The position numbers and the translations under genes are program-made. From NCBI GenBank assembly GCA_000091205.1, contig AP006493.2: DNA of 64,000 bases, one strand, 5' to 3'. Source of the stretch: Cyanidioschyzon merolae. Taxonomy: Eukaryota. Of the stretch, positions 2,802 through 24,104 are shown piece after piece. The notes beneath the pieces were generated by a model. That model saw only the letters and a list, made by a program, of their open reading frames with translations. It had not been told where the DNA came from and did not search any database. Within the stretch, counting starts at the first letter, position 1; the number at the start of each line of letters is the position of its first letter.

Positions 2802-5053
2802 GGTAGTCGGAAAGCCGGTTACTTGCGAGCAGGTGCAGCGCCAGATTTCGAGCCCAGTCGTGGACAACACTGCTTGTGGGCCGCTCGGCTGACGACTCAC
2901 GACGGTGAAACAGGCCGCGCATGCCTCTCTGTGCAATAGATGGGCGGGGAGCAACTCATCAAAGCGCTTGATGCTGTCGCCAGCATGCCGAGGCGATGTG
3001 AAACACACGCGGCTTACGAAATGGAAACGAGTGAGGGCATATCGTGAAGGGCAAGCGCGCACGCTTTATGCGTTTCTCGTCCACCTCGCCAATGGTAATG
3101 CATCTGCCATCCAGCAAGGTGCAGTGCGCAGTTCGATTCAGTCATGATGCGGACACTGCGTCGACCCGAGCAGGCGGGAAGGAAACTGTTCCGGGCGCTC
3201 TCGATTATTCCGTGCACGGATCATATGTCCAGCGACAAGTGCCCTATTTGTGAGCAGGGAAGCCAGTCGCCTCGAGTTTACGCGCACAAGGGCACGGCAA
3301 GGCTGACCTGTCTCGGTGCTGCGTCCATGACGGCACCTCAGGCTTTAATGCGGACGCGTACGGCAGGCTCTGCGCCCTGGGGATCTGACGAAGGAACCAT
3401 TATCCTCAGAGGCGAGCCAGCATCATCGTGGCCCATGCAACGTGAAAGCCTCTTGCGGGATGACGGGTGGCTCCCCAGATGCCGATCGCCATCGCGCAGT
3501 ATGGCGGATCCCTGATTCGAGTAAACGATCCAACATCCCCAAAAATAAGGAAAATCAGCCTCCTAGCATGATGCCTCCCGTAACCTTGCCCAGGCATCAA
3601 TTCGCTTGCTATTGTCAGAGTATCGTATCATTTGTGCCGGTGGGTGGACTGCACCGGTGAATCGTCGCATGCCGCCACCTTGGAGGACGTACCCGGTAAA
3701 CCTGGTCGCATCATCTGTGGCCACAGATCGATCACAGCTACTGCGCGCTCCATGCAGTCGCTTCATAACGTAGTATTTCGTCGATGCTGTGAAGACTTGC
3801 CGCATGCACAGCGACTGATTCGCCTATCACGTCACCGAACTGCTACGCAGGCCTTTCTTCGGGAGCGCATGCACCGCGTGCCCCGAGTTCGACAGATGCA
3901 ATAGCGATGCAACGGACGCCAAATCGCTCCGTTCGTTCGCGAGAGAGCAATGGCACTCGCGAGACCTCTGTGGCGCTCACAAAACCATAGCATCATGCCA
4001 GGACATGCTGCACTTGGCGAGCGGTGCTATGCAACGCTGGCGAACTTGCGGCAACGACATTGCCATAACCGGGTGGCTCCCGAAAACCACCGACCGGATC
4101 GAGAAGCAGCTGGTACACAGTTCGAACTTTCTTATCTTTGCGCAGGAGTCCGAATAGCTCTACGAGCATACATAGCGGTTCAGGATAAACAGGGACTCGG
4201 CAAGCACACCAGAATTTGTTGTCATTGGAGTGTTCAGGCTGGTGCTTGCGACTTACGCGCTCTGCTGTGAAAAGTCAAGTTTTGGCGCACTGCCACCCTT
4301 TTCAGCCAAAGCCCAGAATCCGTCGATAATTGCTCGGTTCCGGGTCCATGAACATCGCCGACTATAGCCTTCATTCACTTCTACTGGCCAAGCTTGCTCC
4401 AGTCTGAGCTGGGCGTTCAGTCTAAACACGCTAACCGCAAGTAGATTGCACGGTATTCGGTAGATGTTCATGAGCAATTTTGCGTTCACACATCCCGGAT
4501 GTCTGACGTTCTGTCAGGGAACCCAGCCGAGCTACATGCGACGTTCAATATCACGGTCTTTCGCAGCTCAGCAGAGCGCTCAAAGCTGACAAGCGGGTAT
4601 CGCGCGTTCCTTTCCAAGACATGGGCCCAAGAGACCCATTGGCTGATGCATACATCCAGAATCTTGACAAGAAGTGATATTTAGGATCAATGAGCCGTGA
4701 CGATTCATAGACAATAGACTAGCCTGGTGTCTGCTTCGTTTGGCGAAGCGTCAACGAGCTACGCTAGTGGGCGCTAGTCCATCAGCCTAGAAACGTCACG
4801 CACTGACCAACGGTGTCTTTAGGCTAGGTAAACCACACGGAACCTTGGCACAGCTCATTCTTTGCCCTGATCTTCGCAACCAGTCAACTGGTCAACGAGG
4901 ATACGCACCATCCAGCCAACCGGTTACCAGTAACGTCCGCTATGCACACAAGGAGGATTCTCTGGCGCGTGCACGCGACGGCTGCCGTCGTCAGTGCACA
5001 ACAGCCAGTGTCGACACCAGACTTGCTATTGCGGTTGCAAGTGACCACAATCT

Positions 5054-6616
5054 ATGGGGCGAAACCGGATATCGCAGCTCGCGATCGTTCAGATCTTGAC
5101 TCTCGTTGTCTACTGGCTGATCTTCGCGGTGAGTGTGCAGTCGGTTGAACCAAAGCTCTGCGGCGGAAAGCCGCTTGCCGGTGGCGGCACACTTTCCCGT
5201 CACATCAGCAGCCGAAGCACGCCCCCGGTTGGACGTCAACTGCTGGCTCTGGTCGACGGAGAGACCTCGTCGTATTCCATTCTTTTTGGTGTACTTAGAG
5301 ATAGGGGCTATACAGTGACCGTGCGCACACCAAAAGACCGTTCTCTGACACTCTGGAACGAAGCAGGAACGCACTATCTCTATGACGCGGTGCTGCTTCT
5401 GGCACCGTCCATTAAAGGATTTGGTAGGGACGGTACCGCAAATGCTTTGCTCGATTTCGTGGACGCTAATCGGACTCTGATTATGGCCGCATCACCAAAC
5501 GCTGGCGCACTCTTCAGGTCGTTGGCGGAAGGCATCGGTCTCGAGCTCGACGAGGCAGGAACAGTGCTACTGGATCACGTGCGGGCAGCGCATCGAAGCG
5601 GAGCCGGGCAGGACACCGAAGGCTCGAGGATATTTCTGGTTGATCCGAAACCTTGTCCATCCTTGGACCTGGGGGCGACCCTTCCATACTGGGAGAAGGA
5701 AATGCCCCAGCGTCCGCTACTGTTTGCCAACGCGACCGGGTCCCTGGTCGCTCCTAAGCAGGATTTGCTCCGCCCGGTACTGTGCGCACCAGCCACAAGC
5801 TACTCCTATGAAGACGGCCAAGTAGTCGAAACGGATGAGGATGCAGCGCCCTTCACCATTGGCACGGAGGCCGTTCTGGTTGCTGCGCTCCACGGCCGCT
5901 ACGGCGGACGTGTTCTATACATCGCATCGACAGAAGCGCTCCAGGATCGCTTGATGTCTGGTGAGCATGGAAACCGAGCATATTTCGAGGATCTTTTTAC
6001 ATGGGCCCTTGGGGAACGGGGGATTTTGCGGATTACCCGAGCAGAGCACCGGCATGTGCCGCAGGGAAACGAACGGCCGCGCTCTACTCCGTATCGCGTC
6101 GGAGATCGACTCCGCTTTGAGCTTTGCGTGGAAGAGTGGGACGGTCGACAGTCGCAACAGCGCTGGCGACCCTGGCTCGGAGGTAATGAACCTCAACTGG
6201 AGTGGGTCATGTTGGACCCGTATGTGCGCACGAGCCTACGAGCAACGAAGGATCAGGGCTGCTACGCCACCGAGTTTGACACACCGTCGAAGCACGGCCT
6301 CTTCAAATTCCGTATTGAGCACTTTCGCGACGGCTACACTCCACTGCTCTTGTCTCAGGTGGTGCCGATCCGTCCTTACTGGCACAACGAATATCCGCGG
6401 ATGCTGGTACGCGCGTATCCCTACTATGCAGCTTTATTTTCAACCATGATGATTTTCTGGATCATGGCCTACGCAGTTCTCTGGAAAGGGCTCGTCTCAT
6501 CGAAGCGACTTGGAATCCAGACAACATCTAGGAGTCCGCACGCGACCGTTTCTTCCAAGGATGCAGCGGCGTCCTCTACCGAAGACTCTGACGCTGACCA
6601 CCAGAAACAAGAGTAA
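5054..6616 (+). CDS. DDOST: Dolichyl-diphosphooligosaccharide-protein glycosyltransferase 48-kDa subunit (OST48/DDOST/WBP1)
   Basis: 520-aa ORF with an N-terminal hydrophobic signal/anchor and luminal domain motifs (YDAVLLLAPS, DFVDANRTLIMAAS). A single C-terminal TM (MMIFWIMAYAVLW) is followed by a short cytosolic tail. This is OST48 architecture. Confidence 0.8.
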   Translation: MGRNRISQLAIVQILTLVVYWLIFAVSVQSVEPKLCGGKPLAGGGTLSRHISSRSTPPVGRQLLALVDGETSSYSILFGVLRDRGYTVTVRTPKDRSLTLWNEAGTHYLYDAVLLLAPSIKGFGRDGTANALLDFVDANRTLIMAASPNAGALFRSLAEGIGLELDEAGTVLLDHVRAAHRSGAGQDTEGSRIFLVDPKPCPSLDLGATLPYWEKEMPQRPLLFANATGSLVAPKQDLLRPVLCAPATSYSYEDGQVVETDEDAAPFTIGTEAVLVAALHGRYGGRVLYIASTEALQDRLMSGEHGNRAYFEDLFTWALGERGILRITRAEHRHVPQGNERPRSTPYRVGDRLRFELCVEEWDGRQSQQRWRPWLGGNEPQLEWVMLDPYVRTSLRATKDQGCYATEFDTPSKHGLFKFRIEHFRDGYTPLLLSQVVPIRPYWHNEYPRMLVRAYPYYAALFSTMMIFWIMAYAVLWKGLVSSKRLGIQTTSRSPHATVSSKDAAASSTEDSDADHQKQE

Positions 6617-7349
6617 GTCGCCTGTAAGACGGGTGTCCCTTGCGATGACCCCGGCTTCATAGCACATCATTCTGGGCAGGGCGGGTTCGCACTTGTACGA
6701 AGAGCAGTCGTGCACAGTGTGCGCGCAGCGTAGCGATATAGTCGCAAATGAAACGCTAGCGCGCGGGGCTCGCGGTGCCCAGGGTTTCAGCAGTAGCGAG
6801 CACTCTGCTTGTTGACGAAATCGCGCGCTGGAGGAGAACAAGCGCCCCCGACGCATGCTCTGATTTTTGGTTCAGGGCAGTCAACGATATACGAGGCAGG
6901 AGAGTTCCAAGTACGGTGGCTCGAGTCAACGCTCATGTTGCGAGGTTCATCGCATCTATTCGCGTTGAGCCTCGCGAGAGATAAAAAGCTGCATCTAGGC
7001 CAGGGTAATAGTGACCGGCTGCTCTACAAATGCGCTCTCGTTGAGGCTTCAGCTTTTAACGTTGTAAACAGTATTTGGATTAGCCTGCAGACACGGAATC
7101 TTTACACCTGTCAAGAAGCTCGTGTTGCTTTTGGGCCCTTACAGTGATTGACACTTGGCATGAACGTCCTTGAAAGCGCCAAGCCGCTGGGCGCTGCACG
7201 AGGCCTCGTTTGTGCACGCGCGTACGCAAGCGGGAAAAGCTGGGCAATGTGCCGCTCTTATCTGTTTCTCGACTGGTGTCCGGGTAACATCGTCCAGGTC
7301 TGCAGGTTGCCTTTGGGATGTACTTCGCGGTACCCAAAGAATAGAAGAT

Positions 7350-9400
7350 GATTATCGAGTACCAATGGCCCAGGAGAATCGTTCTTGATGTTCATATGTA
7401 GAGCGCTCCAGTTGTGCTGGATTGCTCAATAGCTCCATCCCGGTGCCGTGCTTCGAATGAGAATCCAAAGCGCTGTCACTTCATGACGGATTCTATTCCA
7501 TCGGAGCGTTTCGGCATTTCACCACATTGCCTAGACCGATTCCTCCACAGTTCAATCGAAAGATCGCTCGGCACCAAGGCGCTGGGCGCCCCGAAAGCAC
7601 GCGACATTCTCGGATATCCATCAGGGTGTTCAAGTCGAGATCCAGAGAGAGATAGAGAGAGACAGAGACAGAGAGAGCTCGCGTGCATGCTTGCCGGTGG
7701 AATCGTACCATAGCAGGCCGCTCATTTTCGATCGCCTCCCCTGATGACATTTGCTCAGCTTCGTGTTCGCCATCTCGTGCACCAGACTCGCTCTGCTTCA
7801 CGCTCGTTTTCTCGGCAGGTTCCGGCTCGTACTCGCGCCCGTGATGCACCCTTTTGTGGTCTCGAATCCATCGATGGGAATCGTGCAGGAATCGATTCTG
7901 GAGTTGTTGAGTTGTTGCAAGCTTTCGTCGAAGGCACAGGGCGGTACCCGTCGCACGCTACAGCGTGTCCAGCGCCCTACGCTACCACCGAGCGACGCGA
8001 CTTGTCAGGCCCAGCCTTTTCCATTTCATTCCGGAAGTTGGTGAATGCGCGATTCTTGCCTCTGCGCAACCGCATCGCGGTCTCTTGGACGCTTGCCGGA
8101 GACCTTTCGCATCAGCAGAGTGAACGCTCAAGAGCACACTGAATGAGGCACGGGAAGCGTCCGTCTCTCCCGGACGCGGTGCACGGGGTGTCGAGACGGC
8201 TCACGCTGCCGTCAGTCAGCTTGCTGGCGGTTTGTCTCTCGGCACCCATCGGATCTGAACCGCAATCACATAGAGTCCTGGGGAAGTTGCGCAGGTGTAT
8301 CCACTTTCAGTTCATATCTTCGGACAAGTCCTCTCGATTGAGCGGTATGGCGGCGGTCATGATATATTCTGCAAACCGGGAACAACGCTCACCACAGAGT
8401 CTGGCTCCTCACTTGCCATGAACAGATGAAAACGAGGGTCGCTGTGCGACTGAGGCATAGGTTTCACAAAGTGCACGCTCGCTGGTATTCCATCGGTCTC
8501 CATGGTCGCTGGAAACCGCTTCTCAAGTGCTGCTTGCAAAGGAGAAACCTGGAACGAGCTCCGCCGATGCCCTACGCGAAGCTGTTCGCAAGAAGCACAG
8601 TTGCTCGCAGAGATCAGCTGCAGCTTACTCAGGAGGATATCAAGTAGGCGGCGCAAGGATCTATGCCGACATCATGGGTCTGTACCCGACGTACAGAGAT
8701 GACATGGAGTAGACGCTTCGGGAGACAAGGTCGCTCGGGTTCGGGGAGGGCGCCTCTACCGCGCTGCACCACTAGGCTCTGTGCTGCTCTGCAGCGCTCT
8801 GCTCTGGAATACGTCGCAGCGCAAGACGCTAGTAGGGCAGGCGTCACGTCTCAAGTATCCTTCGCGCACGACGGTTACCAGTCCGAGACCGAGAGCAACA
8901 CGATGCGCTTGGGTGGTATAAAACGTGTGTCGCTCTCGTTGCGACAGCTCTTCTGAACCCGCTCCATCTCGACCGCTGGTGGCTCCACCAGCTCGCCATC
9001 TGTCTTCATGAACAGACCCAAGAAAACCTTTCACCAGCGCCCAGTTTCCTGGGCCAGTAAGCGAATGCACAAAGGTCACAGGGTGCGCTTCACCAGGCGC
9101 TCCAGACTGGCTTGCATACTGTTTTCGTGTTCGAACCTAGTTTCGTACGTTTTGGCACCGGTTTCATCGATGTTGTCATAGAGGACGCGGTGCGACGAAG
9201 CGTGACGTTAGTCTGGGAAGTGTTTGTGTGCTAATCCCGTATCCGATTTTCAGACCTTGAGCCGTCTTGAGTCGCGAGCGTCAGCTGTGCTGCATCACGA
9301 GGGTTTCATCGAAACACTGCACAGAACTGAGGACCGCTCGCAACTCAGGTACCGTAACGCTTATGTGCAACTGCTAGGCAAGAAGTGTCAAGAATAAAGA
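7350..9400. repeat. 2.05-kb dispersed repeat, copy 1. It is >99% identical to 17652..19702. It is non-coding-looking and contains a (GA)n-like microsatellite at 7641-7677.
   Basis: Every six-frame ORF between 7414 and 9079 recurs verbatim at offset +10302. Direct comparison shows only about 3 mismatches, all near the 3' end. Confidence 0.9.
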
Positions 9401-9519
9401 AACAAGAAAAGGCTATATTTTGTAGAAAAGTGCTGAATGACGTCCAGCCACACAAGCTTTGCAAGATTCTTCCCATTGATGTGTTTAAGGAGGAACGCCC
9501 TGACAAGAGCATCCCGCTG

Positions 9520-9990
9520 ATGCTCCCCCTCCGACAGTTTTTTCTCGCTGACCTTCTTCACCCTCTATCCTAGATGATGTTTATCTTCTTCGTCTGGTAT
9601 TTCGTTCTCCTTATGCTTCGTAGCCTTCGCCTTTACTCAGCGGGATGGCGTTGGTGTGTTCTTCATACTTCAAAATCGTTCTTCCTCGAGTGTCATGCGC
9701 ACTGGATCGAGGATGGTAATGGAGCTCGCTTTTTTTCTTTAATGTATCTACAATTCCTCAGATACCTTTGCGTCATTTTCTCCGTCGCGAGCACAGCCAC
9801 GGAGCCAAGCGCGCATTTCCGCCCCCCATCTGCAAATAATCACAACAGCCCTAGACCAGAACAGGTCCGGAGAAGATAGAGAGCGATTTGCCAACGAGCG
9901 ATTTTACGGATGCAAACGACTCGTCTATGGATTAGAGGGTGTCAATACGGCGTTTGGCAGCAGAGCATACGCAGGCACGAAGAATAGCGC
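9520..9990. repeat. ~450-bp module immediately downstream of repeat copy 1. It is ~70% similar to 27480..27930 (the tail of the diverged third copy).
   Basis: Aligned by eye: cgacagttttttctcgctgacc / cgacaagttttttgaacgctcc ... gcaaacgactcgtctatggat / gcaaacgactcgtccatggat ... ggcgtttgg / ggcgtttga. Confidence 0.6.
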
Positions 9991-11096
9991 AACACCATGC
10001 CCAGACCCGTGCTTTCCCAGCGCATTTCAGTGAAGGAAAGCGACCTCGTCTACGAGCAGAACAAAAGAATTTTCGCTGGACAAGCCACGAAAATTGCTTC
10101 GACAAAGAAGTATGGGATACCAATGGATCATTGTCGTTTGAAAATTTTTAGGCGACCAAATGATCGAAGCGCCTCTCGAGCTGATGCTGTCGGAATGCTC
10201 GCGTGTTTCTGTCGTACCCGCTGGGGTGTACCCCACTTGTACGCCAGCACGGATCGAATATTTCTCCCAAAGGACGTCTCATTGAGCGATATGAACACTT
10301 GTGCCGCATGCGGTAAGCGTTCGCATCTCAGGACGACATTGATCATGAGTTGTTCAACGCGCATCCTACCCGGATGGCGGCCAGCTTTTTTCCGTTCAAC
10401 CGATTCATTTCTGCACGATTCATCATATCGGTCCTGAATATTCTCATCCTGCTGGTTTTCTGATTGTATTTTTTAGAGAATGTATAGTAAGGAATGAATC
10501 GACGAGAAGCTGGCGTTTGGATAGCGTTTGATAACTTATGTGTAGTGTTCACTTCAATCAGGATAGGGGCTCAAACCGGGGCGGGTCATCCACCACCTGC
10601 TAGTCCTACAAAAACTGACTCGTGTTCATAAAGCCGCTTCTTGGCCAACTTGCTGTGACAACGTAACGTCCTTCCGCCAACCTTATCCAGTCTATAAGGT
10701 GCAAATCTTTTGTTGACTTCCAGTTACCAAAAGCAAGTATAAACAAGAACACCGTTTTCATCCAAGGATTCTACAATGCACCGTTCTGAGTATAACCCGA
10801 ACCAACGTATTCGCTCACAAATCCTCTACACGTACACCATTGTCAATAGAGGAGCACCACTGCACTGCGACAGGAAACAACATAGCCTCTTCCAGTCTGA
10901 AAAATCCCTCTATGCAACCAGAGAAGAGACAACGTTCATGACGTGGAATCCTGCACTTTTCCGCAACAGGGCGATCGCGATGTCAACGTCTCCCGGTTGG
11001 CCGAAACGTTCGCGGAGCAGACTCGCGGGCAACGTTCCACAGCGCGTTTAAGAAGACACCATTCCAGGGGCTCTTGTCCTGATTCACTCCTTCTTC

Positions 11097-14000
11097 ATGA
11101 ATATTGCCGCAGTTTATGTTCAGCGAAAGCGAGATGGTTATACCGTAGCCCGCTGGGAGCAGACGTGGCTCGCTCCATCTGAAAGCAAGCACTTAGCCTG
11201 GCGCGTTGCAAACTACTTCGACCCGCGTAACGTACACGAGCCTGCAACGAGTAGGTTGGAAACACTCATGGCAGAACAAGGCTTTGCTGAGTACGGCCTG
11301 GAGCACTTGGGTGCCGTGGGAGCCAACATCAGCGCCTGGTCAAGTGGAGGCTACTACCAACTCTCCAACCGCCGACTCGCGGGGAGCTACCCAACTTACT
11401 GGCTTGACCCTTTCGAGCTTGCCGTGTCTGAAAACCTCGGTTTGACCGGTGTCGATGCGGAAACTGGCAAACCAGTGGTTTCAGCGCTTCGTGTCTGTGT
11501 GCTGTGGGAGCGAGCGGACGGCCTCTCGGACACGTTAGCCGCGTACGACCTGCTCCACCGGGTGTCAGCGCTCGTTCGTCGATACGATCGACTATTCCAG
11601 TCCGACGTTTTGACGGGAACAGACGCCTCTGATCTATCGGAGTCAGATGAGGAGCTGACGGCGAGCGAGCTCGGACAACGCTGTCGTTTGAACTTGCTCC
11701 TGCAGTACTGTATGCAGGGTGTAGATATGGCGGACGTCGAAAAATGGGTCCAAAACGCTCCGCTTTGTCGAGAATACGATGGAAAAGCCATGAATGCGTG
11801 GCGAAGTCTCTGGGAACGAAAGGAACAGTTACGAGAGCGAGCATTGGCAACCGGCATCCTAAGTGCGGCGGAACTGATAGCTATAGAAAGCGCGAAGGCC
11901 ACCGAGGCACTAAACTCTTCCCAGACACCGGCAGTGGCATCAAAACCTTCGGAGGCAACACAGAAGAAGAAGCATTCCCGAGGGAAAAGGCACAAACGAG
12001 ACAAAGGAAGCAAGCATGCCAAGGAAGCCTCACCAGCAGCAACATCGTCACCCAAGGAGCAAACGGATCCGTTGCAGACCATTATCTTCACACGCACTGC
12101 TTATACGGATGCAACGTTCATGCAAAAAACGCGACAAGCAATCGCTGAAACCCTCTTCGGTACATCCCATGTCCCGGAGAACGAGTGGATGGAGGACTTC
12201 GCATACGCAAAAGCGCTCGATGTACCACCGGTGGAGGCTACCATTGATGATTGGCTCGCCATGCTGGATGCCAAAGCCGCAGAGGAACGAGCAACAGCAG
12301 AAGCAGCAGCCGCAATCAAACGAGTGAACTTGTGGCTTGTAGATGATGAATTCCTCGATCAGAATCCCGGGTTAGCAGCGGAATTGTTCGAGCGAGCACC
12401 CTATTTCGATGGTGAGCGCCTCCTGCAACGCGCATACGATGAATCGTTCTCTGAGCGTGCTTACGCCTATTTCCAGAACGTCTTTTACCTGTTGGAACGT
12501 GGTCATTTTAAGGACGCTCTGGCGATTCTCCAGGATAACATCATGGCTGGTATGGTGCGGCAACGCGTGCTTCGAACAAACCGCGTTCCGAGAGCGCCAG
12601 CGCCCGATTCAGCGAAGACCGAAACCGAAGCAGCCAACACCTCTGCGCAGCAACGTTCTCAGTTTGAGACGGCAGCGGGGCATTCGGCACCGCGGGAAGA
12701 CGTCCTCACCAGCGCTGCAGGTGCCTCCACAGCTGAACGCATGGACGCGCCACGGCAGGACGCTGAGCAGGCCATTCACTTTGCCACGATACCCCGAGGG
12801 GGCCAAACGCAGCCTCTCATCGAGGAAGTCGACGATGCGCCGGAAAGCGCTCCAAAGAGGGAAGCTCTGACGGCATCGGAATCGATGCAACTTACCTCTA
12901 CGGCGATTATCGAAGTGCTGCCCGATGAACAGACCGACGCAGGGTCAGCGCCGGAGCGCCAGACAACAGCACAAGCATTACCGGATGTCGCGGGTGCGGC
13001 TTCAAGCGAATCCCACGCACGAACGACCGGTACTGCAACGGAGAAACCGCACTCGGAACCGGATTCAAACACCTGGGAGCAGAGTGGAACGGAAACTGGT
13101 GTGAAAGCAGGTTCGGCATCGGAGCAGGAATTTGGCAGCGACGACCAGAGCGGCAGGCAAGCTGAAGCCCCGAAACCACGGGCTCGTTTGGAAACCACGG
13201 AGGAGGCGGTGCACCCCCAGGTCTCCGGACTCGGAGAAGAGTCGCAGGATTCGCTGCTATCGGCTGGCGAACATCGGGTTGCACACGAGCTGGTCAAGAA
13301 TGTGATCGACGCGGCACTTGGAGACGCTGTCGACAACGTGTATTCGGAAAACGCCACATTGTCCGCAGTGCCGATGCGATCGGGTCTGAACGAGGCCCCG
13401 ACTGCTGCTTCAGCGACCGTGGACACAGCCTTGGGGTGTCGGCGTTCCCGTTCGACACCGGACGGCGTTCAGGCAGCGTCTGATGAGGGATCGATCACCG
13501 AAACGACTCCACGGGAAGGTGATACCGTAATCGTTCTTGCGCTTGAATCTCAAACAGAAAGGATTTCACTGACAAGAGACGAGAGCAGCGCTCTCGATAA
13601 TGCAGCCACAGCTGGGGCGGTGTCGATTCTTGGTGATCGCGAAAGTCTTCAAGAGCAGCAGCTGGAGCGGATGCCTCTACAAACAATGACAACTACTGCG
13701 TACCAAACAGGTGCAGTTGACGGGAACGCTGCCAACGGGGCACTCGCAATAGCGGACTCGAGTGCACAGCAGCGTACGGGTTCCGAGTCATCATTGCCGC
13801 CTGAGAGCGAAGGACCCGACCCTTCACCAGACCACAAACGTCTTTACCTTCTCGGTTGCTGGTACAAGCTCGCTCTCCACATCCTCGAGAGAATCACTTC
13901 ACTCGACCGAATAGCGACCGAGCAGCGTACGCGCTCCCGCCAGGGAGCCAACGTTCGCATGTCTCCCGAAGACGAGCGGGCTCAGGCGCATTTAAGCAAC

Positions 14001-14468
14001 CTTTTGGCGTACCTGCCGTTGCTACCCAGGCATCGTCAGGCTGCGGTCAATGTGAGTATTGAGAAAAACATGCAGCTGGGCAATTACGGCTACGCGAGAG
14101 GCTGGATCGACTGGGCCTACGACCGGTTCCCTTTTGCGAACAGTGAAGCGACGCGTGCTCGCTACGATCGTATCCTAGATGAATGTGAGGATGCAGCATG
14201 GCAGAACGAATACGTGGTCCCCGAACTTGATCGACTGATGGAGTACTACGGGCGTGGTGCTCTCAAACTACGCGAGTACCTCTTGCTTGCTCAAGAGGAG
14301 GTGAGCGGCCTCTGGAACCTGCCATCTGAGCAGCATTCAAGCGGATCTGAGTCGTCGTCATCGTCCTCGGGAACTGAAAGCGCAAACGAATCCTCTATTG
14401 AAGACGCATCTTCTGTAGAAGAAGATTTAGAAGGCATCGTGCTCAGCGACACCTCCAGTGATGCATAA
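11097..14468 (+). CDS. Hypothetical 1123-aa protein. It has a structured N-terminal ~480 aa and C-terminal ~170 aa, separated by ~450 aa of S/T/A/E/Q-rich low complexity.
   Basis: Longest ORF in the region. Codon usage resembles neighbouring genes. No recognisable domain. The C-terminal motif GNYGYARGWIDWAYDRF and the acidic tail are noted. Confidence 0.5.
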   Translation: MNIAAVYVQRKRDGYTVARWEQTWLAPSESKHLAWRVANYFDPRNVHEPATSRLETLMAEQGFAEYGLEHLGAVGANISAWSSGGYYQLSNRRLAGSYPTYWLDPFELAVSENLGLTGVDAETGKPVVSALRVCVLWERADGLSDTLAAYDLLHRVSALVRRYDRLFQSDVLTGTDASDLSESDEELTASELGQRCRLNLLLQYCMQGVDMADVEKWVQNAPLCREYDGKAMNAWRSLWERKEQLRERALATGILSAAELIAIESAKATEALNSSQTPAVASKPSEATQKKKHSRGKRHKRDKGSKHAKEASPAATSSPKEQTDPLQTIIFTRTAYTDATFMQKTRQAIAETLFGTSHVPENEWMEDFAYAKALDVPPVEATIDDWLAMLDAKAAEERATAEAAAAIKRVNLWLVDDEFLDQNPGLAAELFERAPYFDGERLLQRAYDESFSERAYAYFQNVFYLLERGHFKDALAILQDNIMAGMVRQRVLRTNRVPRAPAPDSAKTETEAANTSAQQRSQFETAAGHSAPREDVLTSAAGASTAERMDAPRQDAEQAIHFATIPRGGQTQPLIEEVDDAPESAPKREALTASESMQLTSTAIIEVLPDEQTDAGSAPERQTTAQALPDVAGAASSESHARTTGTATEKPHSEPDSNTWEQSGTETGVKAGSASEQEFGSDDQSGRQAEAPKPRARLETTEEAVHPQVSGLGEESQDSLLSAGEHRVAHELVKNVIDAALGDAVDNVYSENATLSAVPMRSGLNEAPTAASATVDTALGCRRSRSTPDGVQAASDEGSITETTPREGDTVIVLALESQTERISLTRDESSALDNAATAGAVSILGDRESLQEQQLERMPLQTMTTTAYQTGAVDGNAANGALAIADSSAQQRTGSESSLPPESEGPDPSPDHKRLYLLGCWYKLALHILERITSLDRIATEQRTRSRQGANVRMSPEDERAQAHLSNLLAYLPLLPRHRQAAVNVSIEKNMQLGNYGYARGWIDWAYDRFPFANSEATRARYDRILDECEDAAWQNEYVVPELDRLMEYYGRGALKLREYLLLAQEEVSGLWNLPSEQHSSGSESSSSSSGTESANESSIEDASSVEEDLEGIVLSDTSSDA

Positions 14469-14856
14469 CGCGCTCCACCAGCGCACAGCGTAAACATTGG
14501 CAGAAGCGGTATCACGAGAAGCAGGCACAACTGGGAGTATAAATCTGGCGTCTGGTGGGCGATCATCCCATGAGAGCATCCACGGGACCGGTCTCGCCCC
14601 GTTCGGAAGACATCCAAGACGAGACCTCTGCGACGACGACGAAGCTGCAAAGAGTCTCGGATCTGGCTTCGGCAGAATGCCGAGGTTCGGTACCCAACGA
14701 AACCGGTGCTTCCTCTGAAGCTTGCAGTACCAGATGACGGGTCTGGTACCAGGCGGATCGCGTTCCTTGATCCGGGATCGAATCAGGTGTTCCGCAGCGG
14801 AGAACTTGCTCTTTCACATACAAATCCATGCTCCTGATCAAGGGTGTGAGGTTGTT

Positions 14857-17130
14857 TTACGAGTCTCCGGCGCGAGACGATGCATGCGACGCTGGTAGAC
14901 TGCTCTGCAAATGCCGCTGGGTCAGTCGCAGAGCGTTACGCTCCTCCAGCATGGCCACATAGGGACTGGATAAGTAGGTGCCGGTGCGCAAACGCTGCAA
15001 CGTAGCCTCGTGGATATGTAGATGGACTCGAAGGAGCGCCAGATCTCGCTGAAGCTGTCGGAAGCGTGTTTCATAGACATTGCAGGTCGTACACATGGCA
15101 TCCGCATTCGCGGTGCAGCTCGGAACATCCAAGGCTTCTGTCGTTCCCGCGTTCTTGTCTACAGCATCGCAAAACGACTGCTGCCAGCCCAGGTAGACGC
15201 AACTCGAACGAAGCCAGTCGAGTTCATTCCATAGTCGAAACCGCCGATCACTCACATGTGCCCGTATTCGCATTCTCCATAGACGAATCTGCGTCTGGAG
15301 ATGTTCCAGCTCCTGTCGACCGTGCTGTTCCAGCTGTTCCAGGGCAGCAATCGCTCTCTCCCATCGAGTTGCGGCTGTACAGACGGTTGAAGCTCGCACA
15401 TGGCGAGACTCCGAGACGGCGAGCGCCGTGCTCGCGGTCAAAGCCGAAGCTCGCGCCTCTCCGTGATGAGCAGTGTTGCTCGTTGATTCGTCAAGAACCC
15501 TGTCCTGGTTCGCGGAAAGCGTGTCACTTTCGACTGATGGACGCTGCTGATGCCTGTTACGCTTCTCTGCGCTGTCCGTCGCTATGAATAGCGTCGCAAG
15601 CGTCTGCGGAGACGTTGTGGCGTTGAGCGCAACATGCTCATTCATAGAGCGTTGTCCATTCGTATTCTCGTCGAGACCTGAGCCTGCGCTTTCCAGCAGC
15701 GGGCCTGATACGGGTTCCGCATCCGCGATTCCGGTGGTTTCTAGGGCCATCCTCACTGCTTCCTCGTTTGCTAGTGCATGACCCAATGGTTCTGACATCG
15801 ACACCGTGGGCCTCTTCGCGACTTCACCTTGCGATGTTGCGATCCGACGCTCTGCTGCTGCATTCTCGTGCAGCGCTGCTGAGCTGTTCTGCCGTGATCC
15901 CACCAGGCTCGCCGGTGAAGGCCGCATGGGATCAGCATTTCCATAAGATTGCGTCTCCGTTGCTAGAGCTGGCGTCCTCAGGGTTTCAGGCACAGAAATC
16001 GTTGTTGCATTCGCTGAAAAATCCGTATCGGCTTGTGCTGCGGATGGCACAACGTCTTCGTCTGCGTGAAGCATCGCTAGCGATCCTGCAACGTTGCTCG
16101 CGTGCTCATATTCACATACGCGATGTTCAGCAGTCTTCGAGCGCTTTTTGAGCTCCGAAGCATCCATACATTGCTTCACAGGTTCTGTGTCAGACATATG
16201 GGCCAGCATTCCCGTACCCGTGAACGCATGCTCCTCCTCGTGAGACGTTGATGTACCGCCATCGCCGACGACATGCTCTGGAGCATCCCCGTGCAATGCA
16301 TGTTCGTCAAGGAAATCATCGTCTCCGCTGGTCTCATGTTCATATCGAGGACTTGTCATCGAAGCGTATTCAGAGAGTGTCGGACTCGCGACTGAGCGGC
16401 TCGCTTCTGCCGAATTCCACGATGCGCTCAGGCTGCCTGCTCGAGATGCGAAAGACTCAAAAGTTTCCCGCTCCGCCGATTCTCTGGATGCGTCTTCATC
16501 CGATGTCGTGACTTCGGGCGACCTCGCTGGCGTTGCCAGCACGGCATTTGCTGGAGCACACGTTCCCTGTGAACCGCACTGTTCCGAAGAGCCAACCTGG
16601 GGTTCCAGCTTCGACTCCAGGGCGCTTTCGAGACAACGACAATCATCACCTGCACAAGCCGGACTCTGATCAGCGGCTGTTCTTCGTGCGTGTGTTTCAA
16701 GCGATGAGTGTGAGCCATGGGTACCAGGTGCGCGCTCCTTCGGCAGCGTCTGCGAGGTTTCAGAGTCTAGTCTGGTCGATCGAACCCCGTCTTGGCCTTC
16801 TGACTGCTTTCGGACCAGCTCGCGTTGCCACTGGCGCCACGCAGTACGCTCAGAATCCAGTCGCAAACGTCGCTCATAGAAGGGCGATAGGAGCGGCTCT
16901 GCACCACACTCGGTACAACAGCCGCAGAAGCGCGACGCAGGGATGCCGTAGCTCCGAGCCATATTTTCCCGGTTCTTCGCCGCTTGCTCCTCGAAAAGCT
17001 TACGAATTGCATCCATGCTGGAGCGTCCGGTCAGCCTAACGACCGGTAGCGCGAGCTTCAGCTTTGCGCAGAACGAGGGCCGAATCCCTGCGGGTCCGTG
17101 AGGCACCGGGAAACCCCCGCGAGGCTGCAA
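14857..17130 (-). CDS. Hypothetical 757-aa protein, low-complexity and S/A/E-rich, with a Cys-containing C-terminal region. The start may be the Met at 17016.
   Basis: Long ORF convergent with 11097..14468. No recognisable domain. Confidence 0.45.
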   Translation of the reverse strand: MQPRGGFPVPHGPAGIRPSFCAKLKLALPVVRLTGRSSMDAIRKLFEEQAAKNRENMARSYGIPASRFCGCCTECGAEPLLSPFYERRLRLDSERTAWRQWQRELVRKQSEGQDGVRSTRLDSETSQTLPKERAPGTHGSHSSLETHARRTAADQSPACAGDDCRCLESALESKLEPQVGSSEQCGSQGTCAPANAVLATPARSPEVTTSDEDASRESAERETFESFASRAGSLSASWNSAEASRSVASPTLSEYASMTSPRYEHETSGDDDFLDEHALHGDAPEHVVGDGGTSTSHEEEHAFTGTGMLAHMSDTEPVKQCMDASELKKRSKTAEHRVCEYEHASNVAGSLAMLHADEDVVPSAAQADTDFSANATTISVPETLRTPALATETQSYGNADPMRPSPASLVGSRQNSSAALHENAAAERRIATSQGEVAKRPTVSMSEPLGHALANEEAVRMALETTGIADAEPVSGPLLESAGSGLDENTNGQRSMNEHVALNATTSPQTLATLFIATDSAEKRNRHQQRPSVESDTLSANQDRVLDESTSNTAHHGEARASALTASTALAVSESRHVRASTVCTAATRWERAIAALEQLEQHGRQELEHLQTQIRLWRMRIRAHVSDRRFRLWNELDWLRSSCVYLGWQQSFCDAVDKNAGTTEALDVPSCTANADAMCTTCNVYETRFRQLQRDLALLRVHLHIHEATLQRLRTGTYLSSPYVAMLEERNALRLTQRHLQSSLPASHASSRAGDS

Positions 17131-17651
17131 CGTCCCCAGAAGCGCCCTCAGCCCTGTAAAGACAGTAGCTTGAGCGTACCGAACAGCTCAAAGTATTTGA
17201 TGCTGCACACGAGGAGTCAAGTTGCCGGTTAAGGTTCCGAACGAGTCGAGGGCCAAGAACGCCAGTTACGAGTTGCGCATCTTCGCGGTCCCGTTTACGC
17301 CCTGGTGCGGTGGAACGTGGACGTTCGTTTGGAGAATCCGCAAAAGGCCGCGAGAGTATCTCAAAGCCTCAGGGACGCTTCGGACGCGACTCTGCCAGGG
17401 AATGGGTGCAAGTATTGAAGAAATTTGGGATAGGTCGATATGATGCAGCCGCTGGTAGGGACCCCTGGCGTCGCAGAGCATGCGGCACGTGTGGCCCACG
17501 CTACACGTTGCCAGGGCAGCGCTCCAAGGCACAGAGACGATATCGGTATCACGAGACCCCGGTAGTGACGTGTGACAATAGCAGAGCGGGGAACGTGTTT
17601 TATGGTGTTGATTCGCTGGCCTAAACTCATTCATATCGAATGATGGAACAT

Positions 17652-19702
17652 CATGATCGAGTACCAATGGCCTACGAGAATCGTTCTTGATGTTCATATG
17701 TAGAGCGCTCCAGTTGTGCTGGATTGCTCAATAGCTCCATCCCGGTGCCGTGCTTCGAATGAGAATCCAAAGCGCTGTCACTTCATGACGGATTCTATTC
17801 CATCGGAGCGTTTCGGCATTTCACCACATTGCCTAGACCGATTCCTCCACAGTTCAATCGAAAGATCGCTCGGCACCAAGGCGCTGGGCGCCCCGAAAGC
17901 ACGCGACATTCTCGGATATCCATCAGGGTGTTCAAGTCGAGATCCAGAGAGAGATAGAGAGAGACAGAGACAGAGAGAGCTCGCGTGCATGCTTGCCGGT
18001 GGAATCGTACCATAGCAGGCCGCTCATTTTCGATCGCCTCCCCTGATGACATTTGCTCAGCTTCGTGTTCGCCATCTCGTGCACCAGACTCGCTCTGCTT
18101 CACGCTCGTTTTCTCGGCAGGTTCCGGCTCGTACTCGCGCCCGTGATGCACCCTTTTGTGGTCTCGAATCCATCGATGGGAATCGTGCAGGAATCGATTC
18201 TGGAGTTGTTGAGTTGTTGCAAGCTTTCGTCGAAGGCACAGGGCGGTACCCGTCGCACGCTACAGCGTGTCCAGCGCCCTACGCTACCACCGAGCGACGC
18301 GACTTGTCAGGCCCAGCCTTTTCCATTTCATTCCGGAAGTTGGTGAATGCGCGATTCTTGCCTCTGCGCAACCGCATCGCGGTCTCTTGGACGCTTGCCG
18401 GAGACCTTTCGCATCAGCAGAGTGAACGCTCAAGAGCACACTGAATGAGGCACGGGAAGCGTCCGTCTCTCCCGGACGCGGTGCACGGGGTGTCGAGACG
18501 GCTCACGCTGCCGTCAGTCAGCTTGCTGGCGGTTTGTCTCTCGGCACCCATCGGATCTGAACCGCAATCACATAGAGTCCTGGGGAAGTTGCGCAGGTGT
18601 ATCCACTTTCAGTTCATATCTTCGGACAAGTCCTCTCGATTGAGCGGTATGGCGGCGGTCATGATATATTCTGCAAACCGGGAACAACGCTCACCACAGA
18701 GTCTGGCTCCTCACTTGCCATGAACAGATGAAAACGAGGGTCGCTGTGCGACTGAGGCATAGGTTTCACAAAGTGCACGCTCGCTGGTATTCCATCGGTC
18801 TCCATGGTCGCTGGAAACCGCTTCTCAAGTGCTGCTTGCAAAGGAGAAACCTGGAACGAGCTCCGCCGATGCCCTACGCGAAGCTGTTCGCAAGAAGCAC
18901 AGTTGCTCGCAGAGATCAGCTGCAGCTTACTCAGGAGGATATCAAGTAGGCGGCGCAAGGATCTATGCCGACATCATGGGTCTGTACCCGACGTACAGAG
19001 ATGACATGGAGTAGACGCTTCGGGAGACAAGGTCGCTCGGGTTCGGGGAGGGCGCCTCTACCGCGCTGCACCACTAGGCTCTGTGCTGCTCTGCAGCGCT
19101 CTGCTCTGGAATACGTCGCAGCGCAAGACGCTAGTAGGGCAGGCGTCACGTCTCAAGTATCCTTCGCGCACGACGGTTACCAGTCCGAGACCGAGAGCAA
19201 CACGATGCGCTTGGGTGGTATAAAACGTGTGTCGCTCTCGTTGCGACAGCTCTTCTGAACCCGCTCCATCTCGACCGCTGGTGGCTCCACCAGCTCGCCA
19301 TCTGTCTTCATGAACAGACCCAAGAAAACCTTTCACCAGCGCCCAGTTTCCTGGGCCAGTAAGCGAATGCACAAAGGTCACAGGGTGCGCTTCACCAGGC
19401 GCTCCAGACTGGCTTGCATACTGTTTTCGTGTTCGAACCTAGTTTCGTACGTTTTGGCACCGGTTTCATCGATGTTGTCATAGAGGACGCGGTGCGACGA
19501 AGCGTGACGTTAGTCTGGGAAGTGTTTGTGTGCTCATCCCGTATCCGATTTTCAGACCTTGAGCCGTCTTGAGTCGCGAGCGTCAGCTGTGCTGCATCAC
19601 GAGGGTTTCATCGAAACACTGCACAGAACTGAGGACCGCTCGCAACTCAGGTACCGTAACGCTTATGAGCAACTGCTAGGCAAGAAGTGTCAAGACTAAA
19701 GA
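17652..19702. repeat. 2.05-kb dispersed repeat, copy 2 (direct orientation relative to copy 1)
   Basis: See copy 1. The (GA)n-like tract lies at 17943-17979. Confidence 0.9.
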
Positions 19703-21018
19703 AGCTACGTAACCAATCATGGCATCCTGCATCTTTCGGTGCCAAGCTTGTGATCGACTTGTGCTCTGACCTCTGAACGTAAATGGTTTTTGATGACAGC
19801 GTACATGACATTGACCGGATTAAACTAGGGAGCGTAGACCGACACGAAGAGCCGCTCAACATCAATCTCCGCAGCGCACTCCTTGACAGCATTTTAAATA
19901 CAGAAGGCGACGTTGTCGCGGAGCAGAAGAGACGAATACGGGAAGTGAAAGCCACGACGTGCTTCTACGACGGATGAGATATTGAGCGTTCGTATTCTAC
20001 TTGGGATTTTTAGGCTACAACACGAGTTGTGTACATGCACAGGTCTCCCATACCAACCAAATGAACGCTGATAGAATCAGATGAAACCCGTCCCTTTTGC
20101 AATTCGCGGTCGCGTTCAAGTGTGAAATCGAGAGTGTGTTGAACAGCGAACAGACTTCTCGCACAGAAGCGTACATATTTCTTTTCCCGTCTGTGTCGCT
20201 TCATAATCGTTCATATCAATGGTATGGAATATCACGTCCTGTTGCTTGTATGATGGCATTTCTTTGCGCACGCACAGAGTGGAAGGGATTGACGAGGGTA
20301 CCATGGGTACATAGCGTTTGACCTTTTCTGGTTTGGGTGCTCGACGTTCACAACAGGAACAAGCGCACGGATTGCTCAACCACCCGCTGACTATAGAATG
20401 AATGACGCGACGAGTACTGTCGTTTCTCGACAAGCTAGCATTGGCGTCACAGACAGCTCTACGCGACCATTTTCCAATCTAGAGGATATACTCCTTTTGT
20501 TGGATACTTGCCGAAAAACAGACAACGACAAAGAGAGCGTTGCTGTAATGATGTACGAGATTTCACTGCTCTGAGTATAACTGCATTTGAGTAGCATTCT
20601 GTAGGAAAAAGCGTTCAATAGTGCTCACCTACCAGCTTCAAACGGTGTGCGATGAGCGCCTAAATGCGCTCTCCCTCTTGAGCCTTCCTGGAGCAAAGGA
20701 CTCTCCACAGGACTGGAAATATACGCATGTACACGTCCAATAGAGATATTGAAATGCTTCCGAGCTATGAGCAGCCAGCATCTCTGAAGAACACAGGAAA
20801 AGTGCGCATACGTACGACCAAGATCGACGTGTCACTGTATTCGCGCAGTTGAGCTGCGACGTTCTCTCTAAATGGACAACAACGACGCGCATTTCGTTGT
20901 CCAAATATAAAGCGTTGACATTTTTGAACGTTTGCATTCCTTGAAGACTCACGAATTTGGTCCAGTCTTCCGCTGCACATGATGCGGCCCGAGTCGCCAT
21001 CCAGGGCGCTCTTGTCCC

Positions 21019-22425
21019 ATGAAATCAGGCAGCGACAGCCAAAGCCGTCATTCTGAGAACCCAGAGCGACCCAACCCCTGCCCAAGTCTGGAATACATGA
21101 TCTTTTATCGATTTCGTCAAAAGAAAACCCCAGCTCTGTATGAATTGCGCGAACAGGTCCCCCTCGGGTCAAGCATGAACCCGGCCTTTGCGCTCTGGCA
21201 ACGCGTGCGGAAAACCATCACAATAGCGATATTGCAGTATCCAACTGTTTGCTTCTTCAACAGCTCCGGTTCACATGGCCGTGACTTTTTATATACTGCA
21301 CTGCTTGTAGAGCGGGTTTTGTCTGCCATTGCATACCCGTCTCCATACTCACCGAGAGCGAAGAAATTGTCAAGGTTGACGGAGCACTGCCTCATGCAGG
21401 GTCTGCGGCGAACGCTGCTCCACCTACGAGGCGCACTCCAGCGGTCGAGACGCTTGCCCTGCTCTTGCTATCCTGCTGGAGCGGTCTCGCTCTTTGCTCT
21501 GCCTGAGCGAGAGACGGTCACGGGTGCTCACAGAGGGAACACTTCAGGACGACAGGCCCTAGCGAGTTGTACGTCACGCTTGATGACGAGCTTGCGTGCT
21601 CGTCTGCGGGAGCGGATCGACTGGCAGTCGAGCCTGCCACTTCTGGACGCGTTGGTGGACGCTCGCCGGACAATGTTGTCCCCGGCTTACTTAGCTCAAT
21701 ATGCTGCTGCATCAGCAGCAGCTGCCGGGCTCTATGGAGCAACTGCTTGGACTGGCGATGCAACGGATGATTCCAGAACCGGTGCTAGAAACGACACATC
21801 AACTAACGGTGAACGCAAGTTGGCTACTTCGTCACTCCCGACTATTACAGAAGCGAGCACCGCTAACGGAACCCGATCCGACGGGCCGTACCGAGCACCA
21901 CCTATCACCGCTCGAGTGGTGGAACGAGCCGGACGTCGGGTTGCGTCTCGGGAGGGACCTCATCACATAGGACTCGGCTGGTTAACGACTGTCGCTTCAG
22001 CTGGTGCGAAGGCACTAGCTCTGATTCTAGTGCAGACGCTTATTGCCGGTGCAGTGATGTATGTTTGGACGCATCCACAGGCACTGTTGACCGCCTCGCT
22101 GATCGCCATGATTGCGTACGCTTCGAATCCGACAGAAACGAGCTTCCTCGAATGGAGTCGTCGGAAGGCACCGGTTATTGCTGCTCAGAAACAGGGATTT
22201 GACGCCTTTCGAACTCGTCTGGCGCCCTACCTCCTTCGCTTTCAGGACTGGGAGTACTTTGATTTTGGTTTGTTCAGTGTTGTTCGAGTCCGTGATTTTG
22301 CCGACTACGTCTACCTTTACATCGGTGTGCTGAATCGATGGTATTTGACGGGTTGGTACCTGGATGCCCCCGAAACAGATATCCGATGGGAGGAAGTGCG
22401 ACAAGCCAATGGTAGCCGCTCATAG
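21019..22425 (+). CDS. Hypothetical 468-aa protein with a predicted membrane segment and C-terminal motif WEYFDFGLFSVVRVRDFADYVYLYIGVLNRWY
   Basis: Long ORF with hydrophobic helices in the C-terminal third. No confident family assignment. Confidence 0.45.
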   Translation: MKSGSDSQSRHSENPERPNPCPSLEYMIFYRFRQKKTPALYELREQVPLGSSMNPAFALWQRVRKTITIAILQYPTVCFFNSSGSHGRDFLYTALLVERVLSAIAYPSPYSPRAKKLSRLTEHCLMQGLRRTLLHLRGALQRSRRLPCSCYPAGAVSLFALPERETVTGAHRGNTSGRQALASCTSRLMTSLRARLRERIDWQSSLPLLDALVDARRTMLSPAYLAQYAAASAAAAGLYGATAWTGDATDDSRTGARNDTSTNGERKLATSSLPTITEASTANGTRSDGPYRAPPITARVVERAGRRVASREGPHHIGLGWLTTVASAGAKALALILVQTLIAGAVMYVWTHPQALLTASLIAMIAYASNPTETSFLEWSRRKAPVIAAQKQGFDAFRTRLAPYLLRFQDWEYFDFGLFSVVRVRDFADYVYLYIGVLNRWYLTGWYLDAPETDIRWEEVRQANGSRS

Positions 22426-22439: not shown

Positions 22440-23230
22440 TGAGTGCCGCCACTGGTGCAACGCAAGTTGGTTTCGTCCCTGATGCGCGTAATCGAATACT
22501 TTTTCGCAGTGTAGAGCCGGAGATTGAAATCCCGATGCAGTGTACCGTATAGATCGCAGACGAACTGCCTGTAAGGTGTATTCCTTACTGAGCCGTGTAA
22601 CGATGACTGCGTTCCTCATCCAGGTCAGTCATACCATAGTAATCTAATGGTTGAGGAACACTGAAAGAAACAAGCACATGCGCACGGCGCCAAAAACAGA
22701 TATTCTCAAAGCGTGTTTGCGATCAACGGTAGAAAAAGACCCATCGATCACCTTGCGGAACGAGAAACTGACGGTGATGGCCACCATGGGCCTCTACATC
22801 GCTCAACAGCTTGTTCGTGTGGCCCTGGAAACACTGGGGCACAGTTACGTGAAAAGAGTCCTAGTTCACGCACAGTCATCTTCCACTGAAATCGGAACTC
22901 TAGTGTTCCTGGACGTCGCGATCCGTATAAAGCAGAGGAGCGTCGATTTGTTTCTTCAGTCGATGAGGCTTGCGTTGGACGAACCGTACAGAGCTGATAT
23001 AAGTATTGGCAGAGAGAGAGCCCATTGTATGGATGATTGAACTCGAAGAGAACGACAACATCATCTATTCTAGCTGCAGAGGATTCATCTGGCTGCCTCA
23101 GTTTTGCTCGCAAAGAAGGCTCATACAACAGAGCCCACTTTTTCGAGTCATTGAAGACTTTTTCCTTTACGTCTGGCGACGTCCTTCTATTGCACAATGT
23201 GGCGTTTCACCATTCCCCTTGCGTTCGAGC
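22440..23230. repeat. ~800-bp segment that is an inverted, diverged (~70-85%) duplicate of 52426..53220
   Basis: The reverse complement of 23100-23230 aligns to 52426-52560 (gctcgaacgcaaggggaatggtgaaacgccacattgtg / ggtcgaacgcaaggggaatggtggaataccacattgtg; aagtcttcaatga shared). Similarity was followed by eye down to ~22500 and up to ~53160. Confidence 0.75.
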
Positions 23231-24104
23231 TTTTGCCAATTCTACCAGGGGGTAGAGCTGTTTTACATTCCTCTCTACGCTCCGTGATTCAACCGCCTCG
23301 AACAAGTGTTTTCTATCGTAAAACGTAATGATCGCTCCACTTGGCGAATCGCTGCGTGGCTCAGCACGGTGACACTGGGGCGCATGTCGTCCTTCTTCCG
23401 CAAGTCTTGTTCGCTCCCGGTAGGTCGTCACCTACGGGCATGAAAAAGTGCGTTCATGTTCAAGGAAAAAATCCAACGGAAATTTAAGGACATGAAAGGC
23501 AAGGATCCCGGAGAGCTGTCATCACCGGGTGTCGGAAATTCAAAAAATCCCCTGCTCGCCGACTATGGAGCGAATGAGAGGAGGGAGAAGAGGAGAGGTC
23601 GACGAGAAAAAGTGTCTGCCGTACCGGGCGATGTCGAGCCTATAGTGGCACTGAGAGCACGGGCTCTAGCAATCCTTGCATTGGTGAGTTCAACCAGTGT
23701 CAACAAACGCAAGGAGTTCATGACCAGAGACTTCAACGCTGTTATCAATATCAGATGATGTGCGGTGCTGAAGACGAGACCCGAGGAGCTGACGCGAACG
23801 AACTTGATGGGGCAGCCTCCCAGGCTCGAAGCGTACAGCCAAACACTGAAACTGAGAACAAGCAGCCGGTAAAATAGGCTGGGAGGCATCCGCGAGGGGG
23901 CATCTATTTACCCTGCATCGTCGTAAAACATTTATCGTTCCATGCGAAGAGAGCGCGATCTTCATGGACCGCCTCGAGCACCAGGCGTCGCACTGATGGA
24001 TCATGGTCGTGATACCTCGCAGCTGGGCAAAACCACGTCTAGTCCGGTGAACAACCAGTTTCGTACGATTTGTTCGGACCCGAGTAGATCACACGTGGCC
24101 GGCA

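Follow-up and report, generated by a model that had tools for sequence, protein, structure and literature searches.

Near-identical direct repeats flanking CMK109C and CMK110C in Cyanidioschyzon merolae are probably old copies of a non-coding repeat homogenised by gene conversion

Concerted evolution by ectopic gene conversion is known from the arms of primate Y-chromosome palindromes, from the low-copy repeats through which non-allelic homologous recombination (NAHR) takes place and from the dispersed repeats of yeast. In Cyanidioschyzon merolae, whose 10D genome has been finished to 100% completeness (PMC1955436), a "novel interspersed repetitive element" was described by Nozaki et al. 2007 (BMC Biol 5:28) as a family of 253 copies with a mean size of 3.2 kb, accounting for about 5% of the genome. 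This element was reported to be transcribed and randomly distributed, and to carry a truncated open reading frame (ORF) weakly similar to WSV486 of white spot syndrome virus (WSSV). The name "WSV repeat" was used by Mikulski et al. 2017, who reported trimethylation of histone H3 lysine 27 (H3K27me3) on about half of the annotated repetitive elements, a class including the WSV repeat. The present analysis concerns a stretch of 64,000 nucleotides from chromosome 11 of C. merolae 10D (contig AP006493.2 of GenBank assembly GCA_000091205.1; hereafter the window), in which two direct repeats of 2.06 kb, A and B, lie 10.3 kb apart on either side of the convergent genes CMK109C and CMK110C. The explanation favoured here, with a probability of about 0.8, is that A and B are old copies, in the same orientation, of a non-coding interspersed repeat that have been kept near-identical by ectopic gene conversion.

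Self-BLAST of the window aligned A with B over 2061 bp without gaps at 99.56% identity (coordinates of all features are collected in Table 1). The nine mismatches are found at the two edges, six of them within the first 33 bp (7343, 7347, 7350, 7353, 7371 and 7373) and three within the last 170 bp (9233, 9366 and 9394), and the 1859 bp of the core between them are 100% identical. The first-pass annotation of this DNA had put the identity above 99%, which is correct, with about three mismatches, all distal, which is not. At the stringency of the self-BLAST no similarity was seen outside either repeat end. Two further statements of that annotation stand, namely that each copy contains a (GA)n-like tract, seen here as an imperfect (AG)17 in both A and B, and that the repeats have no recognisable coding capacity. 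The largest ORF inside the 2.06-kb repeat has 132 aa, and a Pfam scan of the ORFs in the repeat units gave 0 matches. In tblastx and blastp comparisons between the copies all six frames scored alike, with no frame preference, and no protein matched a query made by joining 19 ORFs of unit A end to end; this query missed even the orthologous ORFs and was poorly designed.

The 2.06-kb repeats are the 5′ two-thirds of longer non-coding units of 2.5–3.5 kb. A profile built from A, B and a third copy, C, recovered exactly three full-length copies in the window with nhmmer, all on the plus strand, and no family copy in the remaining 35 kb of the window nor in a 21-kb locus of chromosome 17. The diverged third copy had been placed at 26430 beforehand and was confirmed by sensitive BLAST, in which repeat positions 2–1279 align with 26283–27529 at 58% identity and 163 bits, the maximum with shuffled queries being 27 bits. 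Downstream of the near-identical segment, A 9625–10796 aligns with C 27539–28735 (58% identity, 175 bits) and B 19755–20581 with C 27826–28735; taken together, the 3′ flank alignments among A, B and C lie at 57–61% identity and 78–175 bits, where shuffled queries did not exceed 27 bits. The termini are also shared. The right ends of the three units carry the common motif TCTG(N3)ATAAC (A 10785–10796, with the sequence TCTGAGTATAAC; B 20570–20581; C 28724–28735), and the left ends are alike near ATCGAAT..GGARCATCATTATCG. Both the segment equivalent to A 8620–9624 and the (AG)n tract are missing from unit C.

A closer look at the right side of the pair shows where the near-identity stops. From 100% in the core, the identity of A and B drops to about 58% right after a short segment that cannot be aligned (A 9402–9624, B 19704–19754), and their 3′ parts are just 57–61% identical to each other. 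The proposed conversion tract ends on the right at the homology break at 9401/19703, with a sharp boundary placed within a longer and older homology. What had been described as an AT-richer spacer of 1.7 kb turns out to consist chiefly of the 3′ third of unit A (9625–10796), left unconverted; the G+C content of 9402–10796 is 47.4%, compared with 55.5% for the window.

Evidence for homogenisation comes also from the comparison of four genomes, 10D and three environmental genomes represented by metagenome contigs that span A and B. Inside each of them A and B show 0 differences over the core of 1859 bp, while between genomes there are 5–15 core-site differences and the (AG)n tract varies in length, each of these changes being identical in both copies. 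Strain deletions of 14–24 bp in the tract (7646–7669 and 17948–17971; 18 bp when aligned differently) have the same length in A and B of one genome, and the alleles at 8867, 8914 and 9167, private to 10D among the sequences examined, are carried by both 10D copies. According to the pairwise distances, about 8 differences fall on the branch that splits 10D from the other three genomes. In all four genomes, three of them metagenome assemblies, the paralogues of one genome are closer to each other than orthologues are between genomes. Outside the core the edge variants at 7343, 7347, 7350, 7353 and 7373 set A apart from B in every genome. Because these copy-specific variants (7343–7373) have been kept in all genomes, the duplication is older than the divergence of the strains, and the boundaries of the pair are likewise common to all of them. 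At the opposite edge, the positions 9233, 9366 and 9394 have A-specific alleles in 10D and B-type alleles in the other three genomes, so the right end of the tract varies. An earlier suggestion of recent gene conversion within a repeat family is supported by the identity of the core, the divergence of the 3′ parts and this grouping by genome.

The mechanism suggested by this pattern is gene conversion through homologous recombination. Homologous-recombination repair would copy the sequence of one unit into the other, in an ectopic (non-allelic) conversion whose tract would run from the left terminus of the unit to the homology break, and beyond that break the 3′ parts would be left to drift to about 58% identity. 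Crossing-over between A and B would delete CMK109C and CMK110C, and selection against the loss of these genes presumably maintains the arrangement. The pop-out of markers between direct repeats is a routine method in C. merolae (PMC8504449, PMC13353863), and both conversion and deletion are mechanistically plausible here because recombination between direct repeats is efficient in this organism. The repeats had been proposed as a substrate for ectopic recombination able to excise or invert the module. Excision is plausible; since the repeats are direct, recombination of A with B would excise the module and not invert it, and the inversion that is observed at this locus concerns A and an inverted copy, X1 (see below).

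Several points weigh against the explanation by gene conversion. Recombination is strongly suppressed between sequences that are just 58% identical; either A and B may have been homogenised continuously since their origin, or an unusual recent repair event may have copied 2 kb from one to the other. The identity of A and B is seen on finished sequence in 10D only, the other three genomes being metagenome assemblies, and a collapsed consensus threaded by the metagenome assembler through both copies could force A and B to be equal. In addition, the family may be a local one and not the published family of 253 copies. The locus numbers from CMK108C to CMK119C skip at most one, so the units would not be consistently numbered loci.

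Two more copies of the family, X1 and X2, both full-length, were found on L019, a contig of a related strain that is 99.3% identical to window positions 1–7503 and reaches further left. X1 starts about 113 bp to the left of window position 1, and X1 and X2, placed 6451 bp apart, are 99.88% identical over 2585 bp, both being about 58–60% identical to A and C. The same situation is therefore seen twice, in that the members of each pair (A/B and X1/X2) are near-identical and the different pairs are about equally distant from one another. The genes for RRP36 and a nucleotide-diphospho-sugar transferase lie between X1 and X2, each of which has a 91-bp internal tandem duplication. The five units (A, B, C, X1 and X2) measure 3.47, 2.95, 2.46, 2.60 and 2.61 kb and are found within about 45 kb of chromosome 11, in successive intergenic regions. 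A scan of metagenome contigs with the sole 17-mer common to A, B and C returned 6 contigs, all from this locus; the motif is absent from X1 and X2, and the scan is hence silent on the size of the family.

The position of X1 also throws light on the arrangement of the neighbouring genes. The block of OST48, prefoldin and Dus has in C. merolae the orientation opposite to that in two relatives, an uncultured one (L017) and Cyanidium caldarium (L018). One breakpoint of this inversion separates RRP36 from the block and is exactly the site of X1 (minus strand); the other separates the block from CMK109C and is exactly the site of A (plus strand). Recombination between X1 and A, as inverted copies of one family, would be the simplest cause of the inversion. 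Any chimeric structure left by such an event would have been erased once X1 and X2, and likewise A and B, were homogenised afterwards.

The location of the units with respect to genes has to be considered among the alternatives. In all five copies a co-oriented ORF starts about 190–440 bp beyond the 3′ end of the unit; this ORF is CMK109C for A, CMK111C for B, RRP36 for X1, an acetyl-CoA synthetase gene for X2 and an unconserved ORF of 170 aa for C. In a broader proposal, the units would be an undescribed kind of non-autonomous element, specific to Cyanidioschyzon, that inserts a few hundred bp ahead of gene starts with its orientation fixed, spreads to adjoining intergenic regions and acts as a promoter-proximal module or a non-coding transcript; conversion would keep neighbouring copies identical, and the copies would drive local rearrangements such as the inversion of OST48, prefoldin and Dus. 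We regard this proposal as unlikely. Of the five positions, no more than two or three are informative about orientation, too few for statistics. A narrower version, in which the units work as a regulatory module close to promoters or as a non-coding transcript, with selection keeping them identical, is quite unlikely. It would fit the spacing to the genes downstream of A, B, X1 and X2 (with the unconserved ORF at C), the transcription that Nozaki et al. report for their own repeat family, and the fact that the copies can still be aligned at 58% identity and have termini in common. Selection alone, though, cannot make paralogues identical while orthologues diverge, and conversion would still be required. 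The units are moreover absent at the same promoters in both relatives, Rfam and tRNA scans of the units found nothing, the folding z-score is +0.25, and consensus folding gave a weak structure whose covariation term was unfavourable.

A recent duplicative event, by transposition or segmental duplication, that put a new copy of 2.06 kb at the second site with no conversion going on is equally hard to accept. An identity of 99.6% with sharp ends is what such an event would leave, and X1 and X2, near-identical over almost the whole unit, could represent a recent copy. However, in both A and B the near-identical segment, for which C and the X copies have homologous 5′ parts, runs in register into a homologous 3′ part where A and B are about 58% identical. 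An insertion adds sequence; it would not swap out just the homologous stretch of an old unit. Every strain examined has both copies with their edge variants, and still the cores follow the genome in which they reside. No terminal inverted repeats, terminal repeats or target-site duplications were found at the unit ends. A Helitron-like non-autonomous element was considered and rejected; four of the five copies start at A|TC, as such an element would after a host A, but they end in ...ATAAC in place of CTRR and have no hairpin in common.

The third alternative is a cassette, mobile or duplicated, of the composite-transposon or long terminal repeat (LTR) type, with the repeats as its ends and CMK109C and CMK110C as cargo, and the synteny of these genes speaks to it directly. 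Homologues of CMK109C were located in the uncultured relative (57% protein identity) and in Cyanidium caldarium (31%), and CMK110C and CMK111C are recognisably conserved at both loci. The gene order OST48, prefoldin, Dus, 109, 110, 111, ALG3 and TPT is kept in the two relatives; ACOX is next in Cyanidium caldarium, and the locus of the uncultured relative stops at TPT. The gaps at the sites of A, B and C measure 375, 227 and 109 bp in Cyanidium and 1.1–1.5 kb in the uncultured relative, and the family profile gave no match to either locus even at E ≤ 10. The family appears, on these sequence comparisons, to be restricted to Cyanidioschyzon. Because the order and orientation of CMK109C, CMK110C and CMK111C are the same in two relatives devoid of the repeats, CMK109C and CMK110C are best read as resident single-copy genes and not as cargo, around which the repeat units would have arrived.

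Two orphan genes without known domains bracketed by direct repeats would fit the earlier idea of a cassette of about 10 kb, either composite-transposon-like or duplicated segmentally, which fails on this synteny and is now very improbable. No transposase, reverse transcriptase, gag or pol domain was found, the repeats are fragments of longer units present at three further intergenic sites nearby, the module is single in the window, and the CMK109C, CMK110C and CMK111C proteins show no similarity to one another and are not paralogues. A composite transposon was rejected on the missing transposase domains and terminal repeats as well as on the synteny of the inner genes, and an LTR retrotransposon on the repeat ends (ATAGAAG... 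and ...AAGAATA, not TG..CA) and on interior ORFs without Pfam domains and without gag/pol, in agreement with the earlier view that the termini are not LTR-like. As for an artefact, the perfect identity over 1859 bp could come from a mis-assembly (duplicated or collapsed) in the reference, which is scarcely credible for a finished, "100%-complete" 10D genome (PMC1955436) whose copies differ in their flanks and edge variants, and a duplication made by the assembly is an unlikely source of the two copies because contigs of independent environmental assemblies from at least four samples span both A and B with unchanged boundaries and the same architecture.

The two genes enclosed by the repeats were inspected separately. 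CMK109C matches exactly the ORF of 1123 aa predicted earlier, and its convergent partner (14857–17130, minus strand) has 757 aa when started at the TTG at 17130, the annotated CMK110C being shorter (719 aa). The earlier statement that neither has a known domain holds, as Pfam found no domain in CMK109C or CMK110C, and a PDB sequence search with both proteins gave no match. In CMK109C the N-terminal, middle and C-terminal regions are conserved and the centre is long and disordered. The helical region at the C-terminus (about residues 910–1075) is very strongly conserved, and residues 1–250 at the N-terminus are of mixed alpha/beta type. A profile search of 1.84 billion proteins placed the homologues of CMK109C in Cyanidiaceae only, apart from two marginal matches. 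Both CMK109C and CMK110C are taken as orphan genes confined to the Cyanidiaceae. An AlphaFold model of this protein, made from a three-sequence alignment, has a mean predicted local distance difference test score (pLDDT) of 36, too poor for fold comparison. The first 122 codons of the CMK111C ORF (21019–21384) are not conserved in either relative, with conservation beginning at about residue 123, and the true start may be near 21385; the exact product of 468 aa is absent from the protein collection as a reference protein.

Table 1. Positions of the repeat units, their parts and the adjacent genes (window coordinates unless a contig is named).
Feature	Position	Strand	Basis or remark
Repeat unit A, about 3.47 kb, non-coding	7332–10796	+	nhmmer profile, sensitive BLAST and terminus alignment; left end approximate
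Converted (homogenised) 5′ segment, unit A	7341–9401	+	Self-BLAST; core 7374–9232 same as in B
Imperfect (AG)17 tract	7644–7677 in A; twin 17946–17979 in B	+	Length variable among strains, matched between the copies of one genome
A-specific segment, unalignable to B or C	9402–9624	+	B has about 50 bp instead (19704–19754)
Repeat unit B, about 2.95 kb	17634–20581	+	nhmmer profile, sensitive BLAST and right-end motif
Converted 5′ segment, unit B	17643–19703	+	Self-BLAST; core 17676–19534 same as in A
Repeat unit C, about 2.46 kb	26273–28735	+	nhmmer profile and sensitive BLAST; about 58% identical to A and B across 5′ and 3′ parts
Family copies X1 and X2	L019 7616–10217 and 14067–16681	opposite to A, B and C	Profile E = 1e-78 and 1e-60
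Dus–prefoldin–OST48 block	321–6616: Dus 321–1763, prefoldin 2043–2801, OST48/CMK108C 5054–6616	Dus −, prefoldin +, OST48 +	Inverted with respect to two relatives
CMK109C, hypothetical protein, 1123 aa	11097–14468	+	Exact match to the 1123-aa ORF
CMK110C, hypothetical protein, 719 aa from ATG at 17016	14857–17016	−	Kept at the syntenic site in two relatives
CMK111C-like ORF, 468 aa	21019–22425	+	Downstream of unit B; conserved in relatives

Two contigs show the repeat joined to other flanks. In a contig of 7.6 kb (L032, JGI 3300050388) the left flank of A, on the OST48 side, leads through the repeat into the right flank of B up to window position 19994; the loss of CMK109C and CMK110C through recombination of the direct repeats would give this junction, and an assembly mis-join across the repeat could equally do so. 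In L025 (6458–10399) the repeat core, up to window position 9202, is joined 245 bp upstream of a DUF547 gene (BAM82151), presumably on chromosome 17. A distant family copy was rejected for this case, the intact chromosome-17 locus (L033–L035) having no family copy, and L025 was treated as a chimera or a strain-specific rearrangement.

Other repeats were noticed in the same DNA. A second intergenic family, unrelated to the units described above, occupies 22504–23884, 52411–53177 and 59810–60473, with copies 67–71% identical of which the first is inverted, and showed no preferred reading frame in copy-to-copy similarity. Within it, at 23456–23758 (plus strand), lies an ORF of 100 aa without a Pfam match that ends in ...TRDFNAVINIR; we take this end to resemble the last RuvC motif of TnpB/Fanzor-type proteins, as a lead only. 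C. merolae reportedly has eight elements like bacterial transposases. A tandem array at 53397–53882, with a period of 101 bp and at least four copies of 98–99% identity, adjoins a copy of the second family, and a (TGCG)n microsatellite of about 31 copies (29156–29276) is found within the unconserved ORF of 170 aa (29098–29610) downstream of unit C. Chromosome 17 has intergenic repeats of its own, about 60% identical and unrelated to A, B and C (L033 1880–3071 with 9451–8231, and 8411–9340 with 19197–19994). Intergenic repeats that are strongly diverged and lie in local clusters seem to be common in C. merolae and may be a general trait of its genome.

C. merolae is a model valued for its minimal, fully finished genome and its very efficient homologous recombination, and this locus appears to show recombination acting on natural repeats, with two independent pairs homogenised, two conserved orphan genes that could be deleted between repeats of 2 kb, and a neighbouring block inverted. 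It could be used as a natural reporter of the rates of conversion, deletion and inversion. For gene targeting, arms placed in these intergenic regions would face two near-identical targets.

Compared with known systems, the locus resembles a composite transposon or an LTR retrotransposon in having direct repeats of about 2 kb around an interior of about 8 kb. It differs from them by the lack of TG..CA ends, terminal inverted repeats, target-site duplication, gag/pol and transposase, and by interior genes that are ancestral and syntenic. The relation to the element of Nozaki et al. 2007 is closer. The organism is the same, the units are intergenic and multi-copy without recognisable transposase or reverse transcriptase, and all five fall around the size of that element (2.46–3.47 kb against a mean of 3.2 kb). 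Because size, organism and missing transposon features fit, we favour, at slightly better than even odds, the identity of the A/B/C/X family with that element. That element is described as randomly distributed and as having a truncated WSV486-like ORF; the five copies found here are all within about 45 kb, and no conserved reading frame was seen in them. With textbook concerted evolution the locus shares paralogues that are identical per genome while orthologues differ, a tract that stops at a homology break, copy-specific variants that survive outside the tract, and an inversion between inverted copies. It departs from the textbook cases in that the converted sequence is non-coding and the direct repeats are 10.3 kb apart, in a haploid strain with unusually efficient homologous recombination. 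The locus calls for no new kind of element or mechanism, and is best described as a local example of concerted evolution, with an associated inversion, among copies of a family of repeats that was probably described before.

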